A program made the translations under genes and the position numbers. The notes beneath the pieces were generated by a model that was given only the letters and a program-made list of their open reading frames with translations, did no database searches and was not told where the DNA came from. A stretch of DNA of 63,396 nt, filler included, from a bacterium (GTDB lineage Bacteria > JALSQH01): assembly GCA_026985515.1 (NCBI GenBank). It is 3 parts of 3 records of this genome, joined end to end, with 100 filler letters (N's around TTAATTAATTAA, not from the genome) between each part and the next. Parts side by side here need not be neighbours in the genome. Positions count along the whole stretch, not along the records: positions 1 to 21,174 come from JALSQH010000007.1; 2 more parts are not named here. The stretch is one strand, 5' to 3'. Shown here in pieces: positions 320 through 53,407 of this stretch (the first letter of the stretch is position 1; every line of letters begins with the position of its first letter).

Positions 320-395
320 AGGCACGTAGCTCAGCTGGTAGAGCACTACCTTGACGCGGTAGGGGTCGGCGGTTCGAGTCCGCCCGTGCCTACCA
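320..395 (+). tRNA. tRNA-Val (GAC)
   Basis: Acceptor AGGCACG/CGTGCCT, anticodon arm CTACC-TTGACGC-GGTAG, GTTCGA T-loop, encoded CCA. Confidence 0.97.
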
Positions 396-422
396 TTTTT
401 TTATTTTATAAGGAGTTAAATT

Positions 423-2330
423 ATGCCCTTCATCGTATTTAAAGGGGAAAAGATCGAGATTCCTGAAGGTGTCAAAGTTTCAGACTGGTTAAAAGAAAAC
501 AGGCCAGAAGTCTATAAAAAGGCCGTGGTTCTGAGAAAAGGGGATAAATTGTTAGATCTCGCCTCTACACTTTCCAGTGAGGAGGAAGCAGAGATTCTTA
601 CAGATGAAGACCCTGAATCCCTTGAAGTTCTCCGTCATTCTACTGCTCATCTTATGGCTCAGGCAGTGAAACATCTCTTCCCGGATGCAAAGGTGACCAT
701 TGGACCTGCAATAGAAAACGGATTTTACTACGATTTTGATGTTCCGGAGCCCTTTACCCCTGAGGATCTCAAGAAGATTGAAAAAGAAATGAAAAAACTG
801 GCCTCACAGAAAATCCCCATTGTCAGGGAGGAGATACCCCGTGAAGAAGCCATAAAAATGTTCAGGGAGATGAGGGAAGATTACAAAGTTGAAATTATTG
901 AAGAGATAGATGACGAAAAGGTTTCAATATATAGACAGGGAGATTTTGTTGATCTGTGCAGGGGACCCCATCTTGATCATACCGGTAGAATAAAACACTT
1001 TAAACTCCTCTCAGTTGCCGGGGCATACTGGAGAGGAGATGAAAGAAACAAGATGCTTTCAAGAATATATGGCACTGCGTTCTTTAAAAAGGAGGATCTT
1101 GACAATTATTTGAAATTTCTTGAGGAAGCCAGAAAGAGAGACCACAGAAAACTTGGTAAGGAACTTGATCTCTTCTCCTTCAACGAACATATTGGACCGG
1201 GTCTCGTTCTCTGGCATCCAAGGGGAGCACGGATCAGGAGAATAATGGAAGATTTCTGGGTGGCGGAACATTATAAAAATGGATATGAACTTCTCTATAC
1301 TCCCCACATAGCGAGGGAGGACTTGTGGAGAATAAGTGGTCATTTGGATTTTTACGCAGAGCACATGTTTAAGGGGATGGAAGTTGAGGGGCAAAGGTAT
1401 CTTGTTAAGCCTATGAATTGTCCTTTTCACATTCAGATATACAAAACAAAAAAGAGAAGTTACAGAGATCTTCCCTTCAGGTGGGCAGAACTTGGAACAG
1501 TTTACAGATATGAAAAATCGGGAGTACTTCACGGGTTGCTGAGGGTCAGAGGTTTTACCCAGGATGATGCTCATATCTTCTGTACCCCGGAGCAGCTGGA
1601 GGATGAGATAATTGAAGTGATACGGTTCAGTCTCAAGATATTGAGGACTTTTGGTTTTGAAGATTTTCATGTTTTCCTCAGTACAAGACCAGAAAAATAT
1701 GTGGGTACTCTTGAAAACTGGGAAAGAGCCACAGAAGCTCTCAAAATCGGGCTCGAAAAGGCTGGATTAAAGTATGACATAGATCCAGGTGAAGGGGTTT
1801 TCTATGGTCCGAAAATAGATATCAAAATCAAGGACTCTCTGGGGAGGGAATGGCAGTGTTCCACCATTCAGGTTGATTTTAATCTTCCTGAGAGGTTTGA
1901 CATGACATACATCGGGCCGGATGGGAAGGAACACAGACCAATAATGATTCACAGAGCTCTGATGGGTTCCTTTGAGAGATTTTTTGGAACCCTTATTGAA
2001 CACTATGCTGGTGCCTTTCCCATGTGGCTTGCACCTGAACAGGTGGTTGTTCTTCCACTGAGTGAAAAGTTTGAAAAATACGCCGAAAAAATATACTCAA
2101 TCCTCCGGGAAGAGGGAATCAGGGTTGTTCTTGATAACAGAAGTGAAAGTCTCGGATACAGAATAAGGGATAATCAGAAAAAGAAAGTGCCTGTTATGGT
2201 GATTGTGGGAGAGAAGGAGGAATCCACAGGCACAATTTCGCTCAGATGGAGAGATGGAAAGCAGGAGCATGAAGTTAAAGTTGAGGAATTTATTGCAAGA
2301 ATCAGGGAAATTATAGATAATAAAACCTGA
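423..2330 (+). CDS. thrS: threonyl-tRNA synthetase
   Basis: HSTAHLMAQA, DLCRGPH, KPMNCPFH, RVRGFTQDDAHIF motifs. Confidence 0.99.
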   Translation: MPFIVFKGEKIEIPEGVKVSDWLKENRPEVYKKAVVLRKGDKLLDLASTLSSEEEAEILTDEDPESLEVLRHSTAHLMAQAVKHLFPDAKVTIGPAIENGFYYDFDVPEPFTPEDLKKIEKEMKKLASQKIPIVREEIPREEAIKMFREMREDYKVEIIEEIDDEKVSIYRQGDFVDLCRGPHLDHTGRIKHFKLLSVAGAYWRGDERNKMLSRIYGTAFFKKEDLDNYLKFLEEARKRDHRKLGKELDLFSFNEHIGPGLVLWHPRGARIRRIMEDFWVAEHYKNGYELLYTPHIAREDLWRISGHLDFYAEHMFKGMEVEGQRYLVKPMNCPFHIQIYKTKKRSYRDLPFRWAELGTVYRYEKSGVLHGLLRVRGFTQDDAHIFCTPEQLEDEIIEVIRFSLKILRTFGFEDFHVFLSTRPEKYVGTLENWERATEALKIGLEKAGLKYDIDPGEGVFYGPKIDIKIKDSLGREWQCSTIQVDFNLPERFDMTYIGPDGKEHRPIMIHRALMGSFERFFGTLIEHYAGAFPMWLAPEQVVVLPLSEKFEKYAEKIYSILREEGIRVVLDNRSESLGYRIRDNQKKKVPVMVIVGEKEESTGTISLRWRDGKQEHEVKVEEFIARIREIIDNKT

Positions 2331-2355
2331 CCTAAACACCACAGGAGGTGAAATT

Positions 2356-2931
2356 ATAAGAAGACCGGGACCACCAAAGAAGAAAGGCCCACCGGTTAAT
2401 CGGGAAATAAGGGCAAAAGAGGTAAGATTGATTGACGAAAATGGCAAACAGATTGGAATAGTTCCTTTTTTTGAAGCCCTCAGGATGGCTGAGGATAGGG
2501 GACTTGATCTTGTGGCTGTTAATCCAAATGCGAATCCTCCTGTGTGCAAGATAATGGATTATGGGAAGTACAAATATGAAATGCAGAAAAAGGCGAAGGA
2601 GGCAAAGAAAAAGCAGACAATCATAAAGGTCAAAGAAATCAAATTTCGACCCACCACAGAGAAGAATGATTTGATGATAAAGGTCAAACATATGTTGAGA
2701 TTTTTTGAAGATGGAAATAAGGTTAAGGTTACTGTCAGATTCAGAGGAAGAGAACTTGCCCATCCAGAAAGGGGAGTTGAAGTAATTGAAGAAATATATG
2801 AAAATGTTAAGGATGTTGCTTTGATGGAAAACACCCCCAAACTTGAGGGGAGGCAGATGGTTGTCGTTTTTTCTCCACGGCCTGAGTATCTTAAAAAGTT
2901 AAAGGCAGAAAAAGAGAAGAAAGAGGAATAG
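2356..2931 (+). CDS. infC: translation initiation factor IF-3 (non-AUG start, ATA at 2356 or ATT at 2353)
   Basis: In-frame VNREIRAKEVRLID upstream of the ORF-track start, PPVCKIMDYGKYKY; SD GGAGG at 2344-2348. Confidence 0.95.
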   Translation: MRRPGPPKKKGPPVNREIRAKEVRLIDENGKQIGIVPFFEALRMAEDRGLDLVAVNPNANPPVCKIMDYGKYKYEMQKKAKEAKKKQTIIKVKEIKFRPTTEKNDLMIKVKHMLRFFEDGNKVKVTVRFRGRELAHPERGVEVIEEIYENVKDVALMENTPKLEGRQMVVVFSPRPEYLKKLKAEKEKKEE

Positions 2932-2946
2932 ATTAAGGAGGAGAAA

Positions 2947-3144
2947 ATGCCAAAGATGAAAAGCAACAGTGGAGCTAAAAAGAGATTCAAAGTAACAGGA
3001 AAGGGAAAAATAAAAAGAAAGCACGCATACAAGAGCCACCTCCTTGCCCACAAGTCAAGAAAACGGAAGAGAAATTTGAGAAAATTTGGTTTGATTTCAA
3101 AAGTTGACGAGAAACAGATTAGAAGATTGATTCCATACCTTTAA
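2947..3144 (+). CDS. rpmI: 50S ribosomal protein L35
   Basis: [18 protein letters not shown]; position after infC. Confidence 0.98.
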
Positions 3145-18131: not shown

Positions 18132-18533
18132 TTACCTTCTGACAATTTTCAGCACTATGACAGCTGCCCATACCGGATCAGGAAGGTCTCCTGAAACTTC
18201 CCAGATATCTCGAGAGGTATAGTTATATTTGGGTCTGATTTCTCTACCCTGTTTTACCCAGATATCTTTTGATGTGTAGTTGTACTTTGGCCTGAACTCT
18301 CCTCTGTCGAATACCCATATGTCCCGTGATGTGTAGTTATATTTAGGCCTGAATTCTCCCCTTTCATAGACCCAGATATCGGTTGATGATCCGCCATATT
18401 TGGGCCTTAACTCTTTTCCATCAAATATCCAGATATCATTCGATGTTGCGCCATACTTTGGCTTGATCTCCCTTCCATCAAAGACCCAGATGTCATTTGA
18501 AGTGTAACCATATTTTGGTCTCAATTCTACTAT
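18132..18533 (-). CDS. small tandem-repeat protein (6 x 19 aa plus C-terminal hydrophobic helix)
   Basis: Repeat x(R/K)PKY(G/N)x(T/S)SxDIWxxxxxE with synonymous variation; SD AAGGAGG; start ATA 18533 or TTG 18524. Confidence 0.85.
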   Translation of the reverse strand: MVELRPKYGYTSNDIWVFDGREIKPKYGATSNDIWIFDGKELRPKYGGSSTDIWVYERGEFRPKYNYTSRDIWVFDRGEFRPKYNYTSKDIWVKQGREIRPKYNYTSRDIWEVSGDLPDPVWAAVIVLKIVRR

Positions 18534-18552: not shown

Positions 18553-18582
18553 ATGGTAGATTATTTTTGATGTTTCTGTCAA
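18553..18582 (-). promoter_or_regulatory. sigma70-type promoter for the repeat-protein gene
   Basis: TTGACA-18 nt-TACCAT just upstream of the SD. Confidence 0.5.
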
Positions 18583-18597
18583 GTGCCGAAAGACTGA

Positions 18598-18763
18598 AAT
18601 CCTCAAATAGAAATCTGGTTAATACAGCGTCTGCCTTTTTATCCCTATAAATCGGCACCTCACGGCCGTCACCCTTTAGGTGACGGCGGAATATAAGGCA
18701 TGTGTTTTGAAATAATAAATCTTTAGTCACCCAAAATCTCCTAATTGAGATTTTGGGAATAAA
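18598..18763. repeat. structured non-coding dispersed repeat, copy A
   Basis: Colinear homology to 53190-53352; hairpins GCCGTCACC-CTTTA-GGTGACGGC (18665-87) and CCCAAAATCTC-CTAATT-GAGATTTTGGG (18730-57). Confidence 0.85.
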
Positions 18764-18808
18764 GAATTTCTTGAAAAAAAAACAATAAATTGTAAAATAT
18801 GAACTATC

Positions 18809-51216: not shown

Positions 51217-53184
51217 ATGGGAGAATTTGAATTTGGAGGAGGAATTGTATGGAGACCCACTGAGGAATATATTGAAAAAAGCAGGCTTAAAGAGTTTATG
51301 GATATTCACGGGATAAAGACCTGGGATGAGTTGTGGGAAAAATCGGTAAAGGAAACGGAGTGGTTCTGGAAAGCAGTTCTGGATTTTCTGAAAATTGAGT
51401 TTTACGAACCCTATGAGAAAATCGTTGATTTTTCTAAAGGCTATCCATGGACCAGATGGTGTGTTGGGGGGAAGATGAATATTGTCCATAATTGTCTTGA
51501 TAAGTGGATTGGAACACCCAGAGAGAATAAGGTTGCACTTATCTGGGAAGGCGAGGAGGGAACTGTCAGAAAATTGACATACAGGGAACTGTGGCGGGAA
51601 GTTAACAGGGTGGCAAATGGTCTGAAAAAGCTGGGGCTCGGTAAAGGAGATGCAATTGGTCTTTATATGCCGATGATTCCTGAAATAGCAGTGGCGCTTC
51701 TGGCAATAGTTAAAATTGGAGGAATTGTACTTCCTCTATTTTCAGGTTACGGTGCCAAAGCAATAAGTACAAGACTGGCTGATGCTGATGCAAAGGCACT
51801 CTTTACCGTTGATGGAGCGTACAGAAGAGGGAAAATAGTTCCAATGAAGCCCACGGCTGATGAGGCACTTAAGAATGTACCCACCATTGAAAAGGTGATC
51901 GTTTACAGAAGGACAAATATTGAAGTTAACATGAAGGATGGCAGAGATATTTTCTGGGAAGATTTTCTGAAAGATACTTCTGAGGAATTTGAAACTGAAA
52001 AAACTGATGCTGAGGATGTGTTGATGATTATTTACACGAGTGGGACCACAGGTAAACCAAAAGGTGCAGTTCATATTCATTGTGGTTTCCCGATAAAAGC
52101 TGCACAGGATATGGCTCATGGACTTGATCTGCACGAGGATGACATACTTTACTGGCTCACAGATATGGGATGGATGATGGGGCCATGGGAAGTGTTTGGA
52201 ACCCTGTTACTTGGGAGTACATTTGTCCTTTACGATGGGGCCCCTGATTATCCTGATGTTGACAGGTTGTGGAGTCTTGTAGAGAAACACAGAATAACTG
52301 CTCTGGGAGTTTCACCCACTCTGATAAGGAGTCTCATGAAACATGGAGATGGACCTGTTAAAAAACATGATCTTTCATCCCTCAGACTTGCTGGATCTAC
52401 TGGTGAGCCATGGAATCCCGAACCCTGGATGTGGTTTTTCAAAACTGTTCTTGAGGGCAGAAAGCCAATCATAAATTACTCAGGTGGAACGGAGGTTTCC
52501 GGGGGAATCCTCATGGGAAATGTGATGAAGCCTCTAAAACCTGCTGCATTTTCAGGTCCTCTTCCCGGCATGTATGCTGATGTTGTTGATGAAAATGGAA
52601 ATTCCGTTAGAAATCAGGTTGGGGAACTTGTGGTGAGAAAGCCCTGGCTCGGTATGACCTATGGTTTCTGGAAGGATCCAGATAGATACATAAGAACATA
52701 CTGGTCAAGATTCAAAGATGTATGGGTTCATGGTGACTGGGCTGCAGTAGATGAGGATGGTTTGTGGTACATACTTGGAAGAAGCGACGATGTCATAAAA
52801 GTGGCAGGTAAAAGACTCGGTCCTGCAGAGGTGGAAAGCATCGTGGTTGAACATCCAGCTGTGGTTGAGGCTGCGGCTGTGGGTGTACCTGATCCAGTGA
52901 AAGGGCAGGTTGTGGTTGTCTTTGCAGTTTTAAAAGAGGGAGCTGAAGACAGAGAGAAGATAAAGGAGGAAATAAAAGACCTGATTGTTAAGGAGATGGG
53001 GAAGGCTCTTGCTCCAAAGGATGTACACTTTGTTTCGCAGCTGCCTCAAACACGTAATGCCAAAGTGATAAGGAGAGCAATAAGAGCTGCATATATTGGA
53101 GAGGATCCAGGAGATCTCAGTTCCCTTCTGAATCCTGAAGCACTGGAGGAAATAAAGGAACTGGGCAGGAAATACTACCGTTGA
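51217..53184 (+). CDS. AMP-forming acyl-CoA synthetase (Acs-like)
   Basis: YTSGTTGKPKG, STGEPWNPE, GRSDDVIKVAGKR. Confidence 0.93.
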   Translation: MGEFEFGGGIVWRPTEEYIEKSRLKEFMDIHGIKTWDELWEKSVKETEWFWKAVLDFLKIEFYEPYEKIVDFSKGYPWTRWCVGGKMNIVHNCLDKWIGTPRENKVALIWEGEEGTVRKLTYRELWREVNRVANGLKKLGLGKGDAIGLYMPMIPEIAVALLAIVKIGGIVLPLFSGYGAKAISTRLADADAKALFTVDGAYRRGKIVPMKPTADEALKNVPTIEKVIVYRRTNIEVNMKDGRDIFWEDFLKDTSEEFETEKTDAEDVLMIIYTSGTTGKPKGAVHIHCGFPIKAAQDMAHGLDLHEDDILYWLTDMGWMMGPWEVFGTLLLGSTFVLYDGAPDYPDVDRLWSLVEKHRITALGVSPTLIRSLMKHGDGPVKKHDLSSLRLAGSTGEPWNPEPWMWFFKTVLEGRKPIINYSGGTEVSGGILMGNVMKPLKPAAFSGPLPGMYADVVDENGNSVRNQVGELVVRKPWLGMTYGFWKDPDRYIRTYWSRFKDVWVHGDWAAVDEDGLWYILGRSDDVIKVAGKRLGPAEVESIVVEHPAVVEAAAVGVPDPVKGQVVVVFAVLKEGAEDREKIKEEIKDLIVKEMGKALAPKDVHFVSQLPQTRNAKVIRRAIRAAYIGEDPGDLSSLLNPEALEEIKELGRKYYR

Positions 53185-53189
53185 GCAGT

Positions 53190-53352
53190 AATTCTCAAAT
53201 AAAAAAGCTGGTTAGTCCAGCGTCTCTCTTTTTTACTTGTAAATCAGACCTCACCTGCCGTCACTTTTGGAGTGACGGCAGGATATTGAGTGTGTTTTAA
53301 AAATGATAAATTTTAGCTCCCCAAAATATCTTAATTGAGATTAGGGGTTAAA
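53190..53352. repeat. structured non-coding dispersed repeat, copy B
   Basis: Homologous to 18598-18763; hairpins GCTGG-TTAGT-CCAGC, CCTGCCGTCACT-TTTGG-AGTGACGGCAGG (53254-82) and an imperfect CCCCAAAATATC..GAGATTAGGGG. Confidence 0.85.
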
Positions 53353-53407
53353 TTTGACTTCTTTTCCTTTAAAAGGAAAATGATAGAAAAAGAAACGGAG
53401 GTATTAA

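Follow-up and report, generated by a model that had tools for sequence, protein, structure and literature searches.

A repeated 160-bp element of an uncultured vent bacterium is very probably a MITE, with ends that are likely ISLbi1-like

The locus and its neighbourhood

The window, that is the whole stretch of 63,396 nucleotides analysed here (filler included), consists of three contigs joined by N and comes from an uncultured vent bacterium, with an assembly of 2.36 Mb in 268 contigs that is 97.6% complete. It contains two related segments, copy A on contig C7 and copy B on contig C9. Copy A lies between a divergent pair of genes (a repeat ORF and a TadE-domain ORF) and copy B between a tandem acyl-CoA synthetase and thiolase, and these neighbours are unrelated, as an earlier note on this DNA had observed. 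The same note had aligned the two segments end to end, and this alignment between separate contigs is confirmed (74% identity over 162 aligned columns). The segments that it delimited are real, but their ends sit 4–6 bases further left (A 18594–18757, B 53186–53347). No reading frame is shared by all copies of the element, in line with the earlier statement that A and B have no ORF in common. The features of the two loci, in positions of the window, are as follows.

18553–18582, minus strand: outward sigma70-like promoter match TTGACA-18-TACCAT in host sequence outside A, with the −35 box 11 bp from the left end (consensus scan only)
18594–18757, plus strand (orientation by the convention of the earlier note): copy A, very probably a MITE, 164 bp (ends from the alignment of all copies)
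18594–18616, plus strand: left terminus of A, resembling the IRR of ISLbi1-like IS, with CTCA-N5-AAATCT at positions 9–23 (PWM of 11 foreign IRR ends: best site along A, top 1.4e-4 of genome positions)
18665–18687, plus strand: internal GC-rich hairpin of A, 9-bp stem and 5-nt loop (folding; two-sided change in 5/10 pairs, 19 aligned units)
18730–18757, plus strand: terminal 11-6-11 palindrome of A, its outer arm being the right terminal inverted repeat (folding; two-sided change in 0/12 pairs)
18771–18798, plus strand: outward sigma70-like promoter match TTGAAA-16-TAAAAT in host sequence, with the −35 box 13 bp from the right end of A (consensus scan only)
53181–53185, plus strand: left copy of the decayed target duplication of B, overlapping the synthetase stop codon (3/5 bases identical to 53348–53352; length inferred from the empty site)
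53186–53347, plus strand: copy B, very probably a MITE, 162 bp, between acyl-CoA synthetase and thiolase (missing from the orthologous G001 junction; excess 167 = 162 + 5)
53254–53282, plus strand: GC hairpin of B, 12-bp stem with a T-A closing pair (folding)
53319–53347, plus strand: terminal palindrome of B, interrupted by mismatches (folding, aligned units)
53348–53352, plus strand: right copy of the decayed target duplication of B (flank comparison and empty-site length)
53354–53381, plus strand: host sigma70-like promoter match before the thiolase, with the −35 box 6 bp from the right end of B (same hexamer at the empty G001 site)

Beside copy A, the ORF at 18132–18524 (minus strand) encodes 130 amino acids with about six 19-aa repeats (57-bp period). 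It has no Pfam family above cut-off, and neither the repeat-ORF region nor the TadE-like gene has a match in the same-family genome G001. Two further observations concern the first part of the window. Positions 1–272 adjoin a tRNA-Val and recur over about 180–270 bp, at 94–98%, in C2, C101, C204 and C225, as a small repeated gene or an element end. At 357–486 (minus strand), opposite the tRNA-Val, the Rfam family HPnc0260 scores just over its gathering score, probably as an antisense echo of the tRNA.

Copy number and distribution

The segments had been described as present twice. Instead, an iterated HMM search of the genome (nhmmer) gave 21 non-overlapping matches at E<1e-5, which correspond to 20 loci, and a covariance model built from 19 units, the second search that the earlier note had proposed, recovered the same set together with one reverse-strand echo. 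Single-unit copies with two ends measure 126–164 bp. Several copies are internally deleted, with large deletions, or are missing one end. Pairwise identity among the copies ranges from 61% to 92% with a median of 74%, and the nearest other copy to A is that on C243 (92% identity). In the alignment of all copies, similarity ends abruptly on either side of the element.

All 20 loci lie within or border intergenic gaps, in a genome that is about 92% coding by crude ORF calls. The orientation relative to the neighbouring genes is mixed: past the right end, 7 loci have a gene on the same strand, 9 have one on the opposite strand and 4 have none. One locus, L022 (C11:4023–4312), comprises a single two-ended unit with three tandem GC hairpins, each bearing its own paired substitutions. 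A different high-copy repeat family is also present in the genome (C13:1993–2502, C141:1–405, C205:3377–3890, C71, C161 and others), with a self-blast depth of up to 20.

The element was found nowhere else among the sequences searched. It is absent from 30 other genomes by blastn (0 matches) and from 20 genomes bearing the IS family discussed below by covariance model (0 matches; the positive control was the element's own genome, in a separate run), and blastn against plasmids and phages returned just 3 and 2 short chance matches, respectively. The left-end and terminal-palindrome patterns each gave 0 matches in viral contigs. In metagenomes the palindrome pattern matched at 10 loci, of which 5 are contigs of the same genome and 5 are chance matches (4 of them in one unrelated coding gene), and both of its matches in a genome-contig collection are due to chance; these viral, metagenome and genome-contig scans were keyed to end patterns, so relatives with other ends lie outside their reach.

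Empty sites and target duplications

Four loci (A, B, C118 and C243) were looked up in G001, which is 80% complete, and two of them, B and C118, are empty there. The synthetase-thiolase junction of B is intact in G001 without the element, with a length excess on our side of 167 = 162 + 5, and the genes flanking C118 are adjacent in G001, with an excess of 162 = 156 + 6. Therefore, the excesses of 167 and 162 point to target duplications of 5 and 6 bp. At C118 the element occupies the last codons of the upstream ORF and provides its stop codon (L014 1476–1515), and deletion of the element with one repeat copy restores a normal gene end; the upstream gene reads as Sir2-like. No region orthologous to that of copy A exists in G001, in which a gyrB-like gene comes after the tRNA-Arg, and the C243 region is not covered there. 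Within the genome itself, no clean empty site was seen among the paralogous flank matches listed.

Flanking duplications can also be recognised directly. An exact 5-bp duplication is present at 3/17 two-ended loci, a count reached by 0/20,000 flank permutations, and a duplication with at most one mismatch at 6/17 (permutation p 0.0007); both counts allow the right end to lie 1 or 2 bases further out (+1, +2), offsets that were chosen post hoc. The 17 two-ended loci are those left once C212 (contig end), C73 and one C11 copy were dropped for a missing end. A scan at fixed length and fixed offset gave no single clear answer. No duplication is recognisable at 11/17 loci, as expected of old copies, and direct repeats in MITEs are described in PMC10969869 as being retained in younger copies only. 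Most copies are indeed old (median pairwise identity 74%) and decaying.

The earlier note had offered two readings of these segments, a non-autonomous mobile element or a new structured RNA family. The mobile reading is supported by the copy number, by the two orthologous sites empty in G001 and by the target duplications. We conclude that the element is very probably a MITE.

Terminal sequences and likeness to ISLbi1-like insertion sequences

The termini form an ungapped, imperfect inverted repeat of 17 bp with 12–13/17 positions identical (by eye), and the ends read CC...GGG. The genome also contains an ISLbi1-like insertion sequence, left only as broken or contig-end pieces (C37, C45, C46, C50, C79, C132, C136, C168, C178, C191, C216, C220 and C233; L048–L050). 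The closest named transposase found for this resident IS is that of ISLbi1 (ISNCY). Its full-length homologs carry an rve domain, with an IS481 model score below cut-off, and one of them, P0002 (rve), is 32% identical to the ISLbi1 transposase over 96% of its length. Homologs of the resident IS occur in 21/301 genomes searched, its own included.

The ends of these IS homologs share a motif, TCA-N4/5-AAATCT, from position 10, which recurs in the element. One foreign end, L064, equals the element at 14/14 bases (positions 10–23), and ISLbi1 itself, which was fetched afterwards and stands outside the PWM, has 13/14 of those bases in its inner right-end repeat. The PWM was built from 11 foreign IRR ends, after 4/22 extracted ends had been removed as inner repeats or mis-calls, for a family that had been picked by eye before the test. 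Across all genome positions, it ranks a consensus-like left end within the top 2e-5 and that of A within the top 1.4e-4; in 4/5 copies tested, the left end lies between the top 2e-5 and 1e-3. When whole copies are scanned, position 1 is the best site on the forward strand in 4/5 and position 1 is the best on the reverse strand in 4/5. The right end fits the family weakly, in the top 0.1–0.6% under the IRR matrix and no better under the IRL matrix. Duplications of 5–6 bp flank family members as well (L061, L071 and L068, read by eye), as they do the element.

The likeness has clear bounds. ISLbi1 of Leptospira biflexa p74 (ISNCY; name from the record) and its relatives encode a transposase, whereas the element does not; terminal bases 3–8 differ between the element and the resident IS, the right ends are weakly similar, and the PWM found no strong second site 30–40 bp inside, so that a second internal motif is not clear. 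Aligned locally to the ends of the resident IS, whole copies give no significant match (best z 2.1), and the element HMM reached a best E of 0.44 against 30 IS loci. An autonomous parent with matching ends was found neither in the element's own (fragmented) genome nor in the 30 IS loci, the 20 IS-bearing genomes or the viral contigs. At two loci the element abuts a left end of the resident IS, lying 31 bp inside the IS on C89 and 8 bp inside on C114, where the IS interior is gone. In the part of the literature on ISLbi1 covered, comprising titles and abstract openings, no MITE is mentioned.

These same points bear on a different ancestry, in which the element would be a MITE of another DDE family, its parent missing from the 268-contig assembly, and the ISLbi1-like likeness a chance product of AT-rich DNA. 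Collapsed repeats are presumably often lost from such assemblies, and the missing parent, the non-significant whole-element alignment and the weak right-end score all fit this account. It must nevertheless explain PWM matches in exact register at both termini, identity of 13–14/14 with the L064 and ISLbi1 motifs and a duplication length that agrees with the ISLbi1-like family, in a genome without a match to DDE_Tnp_1, DDE_Tnp_1_3 or Transposase_20. We therefore consider another DDE family rather unlikely, and regard the MITE as most likely ISLbi1-like; judged from these end sequences, membership of that family is likely even though no parent is in hand.

Other transposases were considered as well. 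There is no match in the genome to DDE_Tnp_1 (PF01609), DDE_Tnp_1_3 (IS982-type; PF13612) or Transposase_20 (IS110-type; PF02371); PF04986 was uninformative, as this model matched no control either. An ACCC right end recalls IS982, a candidate that was considered and dropped. On C106 (L021), a MITE copy lies beside an IS481-like element (1711–3100; 386-aa ORF), with a TTGACT box 5 bp away from one of its ends; the first 8–9 bases of this box-side end are repeated between the MITE and the other end of the IS481-like element. As a source of the MITE this element was rejected, as its ends differ.

Proposed origin and mechanism

A family transposase supplied in trans would bind CTCA-N5-AAATCT at each end of the MITE, join the ends across a spacer of 5–6 bp (copy-out, paste-in) and insert the product with a stagger of 5–6 bp. 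The parent's left end, with its transposase leader, may have become the right ~100 bp, which include the GC hairpin; by eye, such a leader hairpin is also seen in the resident IS and in two foreign members of the family. Copies would then survive where genes and promoters are missed.

Hairpins and the RNA reading

The GC hairpin of A (18665–18687) has a C-G closing pair and a CTTTA loop, and that of B (53254–53282) a T-A pair and a TTTGG loop; the hairpin is thus kept, with the closing-pair change and the different 5-nt loops that had been described. In A the second hairpin, also reported as kept, is a perfect 11-6-11 palindrome, whereas mismatches interrupt that of B; 0/12 pairs of this hairpin show two-sided change among the 19 aligned units, where departures are mostly unpaired changes. 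Both copies fold better than 200/200 shuffles (z −4.6 for A, −4.1 for B).

The element could be read as a structured RNA, or as a regulatory element working at the RNA level through the GC hairpin, with a MITE as the possible source from which it was domesticated. Besides the strong folding, many copies lie between promoters and genes, and in a shuffle test of covariation this one hairpin shows two-sided changes in 5/10 pairs (9 cells), matched by 1/500 shuffles. This test overstates covariation, however, as the aligned units are related paralogs and their kinship is ignored, and of the units that covary, two stand in tandem at a single locus. RNAalifold retains just 7 pairs, the terminal helix shows none of the same signal, and neither hairpin is called as an intrinsic terminator. 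The Rfam comparison gave nothing at gathering score on either copy, and the 9 matches around A at E<=10 are weak chance matches, none of them close to that score. An RNA function also sits poorly with the mixed orientation (same strand 7 loci, opposite 9, absent 4) and with two orthologous sites of a same-family genome at which the element was lost or is absent. Near-palindromes are subject to template-switch correction, and the covariation of the GC hairpin may reflect such correction, selection on a hairpin of the parent's transposase leader, or selection at host sites. We consider an RNA-level function of this kind very unlikely. The new structured RNA family of the earlier note is unlikely too, given the mixed orientation, the restriction to one lineage, the large deletions and covariation in the GC hairpin only; since there is no Rfam match and the terminal hairpin never covaries, the element is probably not a new RNA family.

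Other mobile elements compared with the MITE

The mobile form of the earlier proposal was an element derived from IS200/IS605 ends. A further candidate is a palindrome-associated element (PATE) or a REP-like element that a Y1 enzyme (IS200/IS605 TnpA or RAYT) would mobilise in single-stranded form. Folded as DNA, the two hairpins are indeed stable (z −4.9), one locus resembles a REP cluster in having three hairpins in tandem, and roughly half of the copies show a loose GT immediately outside their right end, which on the opposite strand could serve as a target motif. This GT, however, completes the terminal palindrome and is therefore better read as belonging to the end. To our knowledge, Y1 peel-and-paste (IS200/IS605) elements make no target duplications, whereas here the duplications of 5–6 bp agree with the length excess at the empty sites, and there are terminal inverted repeats. 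The search for tnpA and tnpB that had been suggested was run, and neither Y1_Tnp (PF01797) nor TnpB (PF07282) has a match in the genome, while controls matched in 6 and 8 of 14 genomes. With target duplications and no TnpA or TnpB found, the element is not an IS200/IS605 derivative, and its ends match instead those of ISLbi1-like DDE elements; movement by a Y1 enzyme is extremely unlikely. PATEs are likewise short, gene-less and hairpin-bearing, but their hairpins are subterminal, they carry TAM/TEM motifs and TnpA excises them without a scar (PMC10055086).

Xer sites have an 11-6-11 geometry, which the terminal palindrome recalls, and a contig bearing three of the loci also encodes a tyrosine recombinase; the palindrome could on this account be the att site of a tyrosine-recombinase or integron-type element. 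The recombinase, however, reads as an ordinary XerD in a housekeeping context, the palindrome is entirely inside the element, and the flanks are duplicated rather than being hybrid sites, so that this account is scarcely credible. The 11-6-11 layout is given for dif sites in PMC10132070, which also concerns the IS1202 family. In its ISAba32/ISAjo2 subgroup, duplications are 5–6 bp, as in the element, insertion is oriented at 5–6 bp from a protein-bound site, and extra binding sites lie near the ends (bioRxiv 10.1101/2022.12.17.520857, PMC10132070); an IS1202-family element forms circles with its ends joined across 5 bp (bioRxiv 10.1101/2022.12.17.520857). IS1202 elements, however, end in TGT...ACA and target XerCD sites (PMC10132070), whereas our element starts with CC and shows no dif targeting. 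IS1202 family membership was rejected, the ends being CC...GGG and not 5'-TGT...ACA-3'.

The closest parallels are prokaryotic MITEs such as QMITE2 of Coxiella and Chunjie of Geobacter, which, according to PMC10969869, are also below 500 bp, with terminal inverted repeats of 4–30 bp and direct repeats in young copies, and also show intergenic AT-rich sites, stable stem-loops and many truncated copies. The present element is unrelated to them in sequence, has asymmetric ends with one perfect 11-6-11 palindrome, and occurs in a single lineage. It has every MITE feature tested, and lacks those of IS200/IS605 PATEs and of the IS1202 family.

Promoter proximity and possible activity

A TTGACA-like hexamer lies within 14 bp outward of 11/37 element ends, compared with 9% of random intergenic points (p 4e-4), and six of these 11 lie at 11–13 bp; the distance windows were chosen post hoc, survival bias predicts some excess, and 2/11 ends are non-independent, one being the resident IS's own target and one arising from duplication. 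Right ends at the 5–6 bp from a −35 box that is typical of the family number 2/18 (B included), against 1.2% expected per end (p 0.02). TTG stands 5 bp outside 8/10 left ends of the resident IS, and a TTG-starting hexamer lies at this distance in most foreign family members too (both by eye). We regard a bias toward sites just upstream of −35 boxes as a weak signal, and as a lead.

Contigs of four sequencing runs were compared with 20 kb of C11, covering three loci (L025). In run X3, which belongs to a second study, one contig connects the right end of the element to the first base of its left end across 6 bp, in the form of a copy-out, paste-in circle or a head-to-tail dimer; this joint is only a hint, as it comes from one contig, matched at 85% likeness. 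None of the 15 of 32 joints listed for L025 skips an element, and thus no strain-level empty site was seen.

Taken further, the MITE might still be mobile, parasitise a promoter-homing ISLbi1-like transposase and itself be steered to promoters, just upstream of −35 boxes. We consider this doubtful. If true, a covarying GC hairpin would be delivered to the edges of host promoters, and the element, at 160 bp, would be a minimal substrate on which to ask how promoters are located by a lone DDE transposase. The literature on promoter-targeted MITEs, as far as its consulted parts go, held nothing on this point, which is not proof of absence.

Meaning for the host and the ISLbi1-like group

MITEs are common, and a new one is therefore an ordinary finding of modest value. 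At least one host gene end has been altered by this MITE, at C118, where it supplies the last codons and the stop. The ISLbi1-like group is little studied, and the element, apparently a miniature of it, marks the end bases that the transposase of this group would need. Should the promoter bias and the end-to-end junction hold, it would provide a compact tool for studying promoter-directed transposition.
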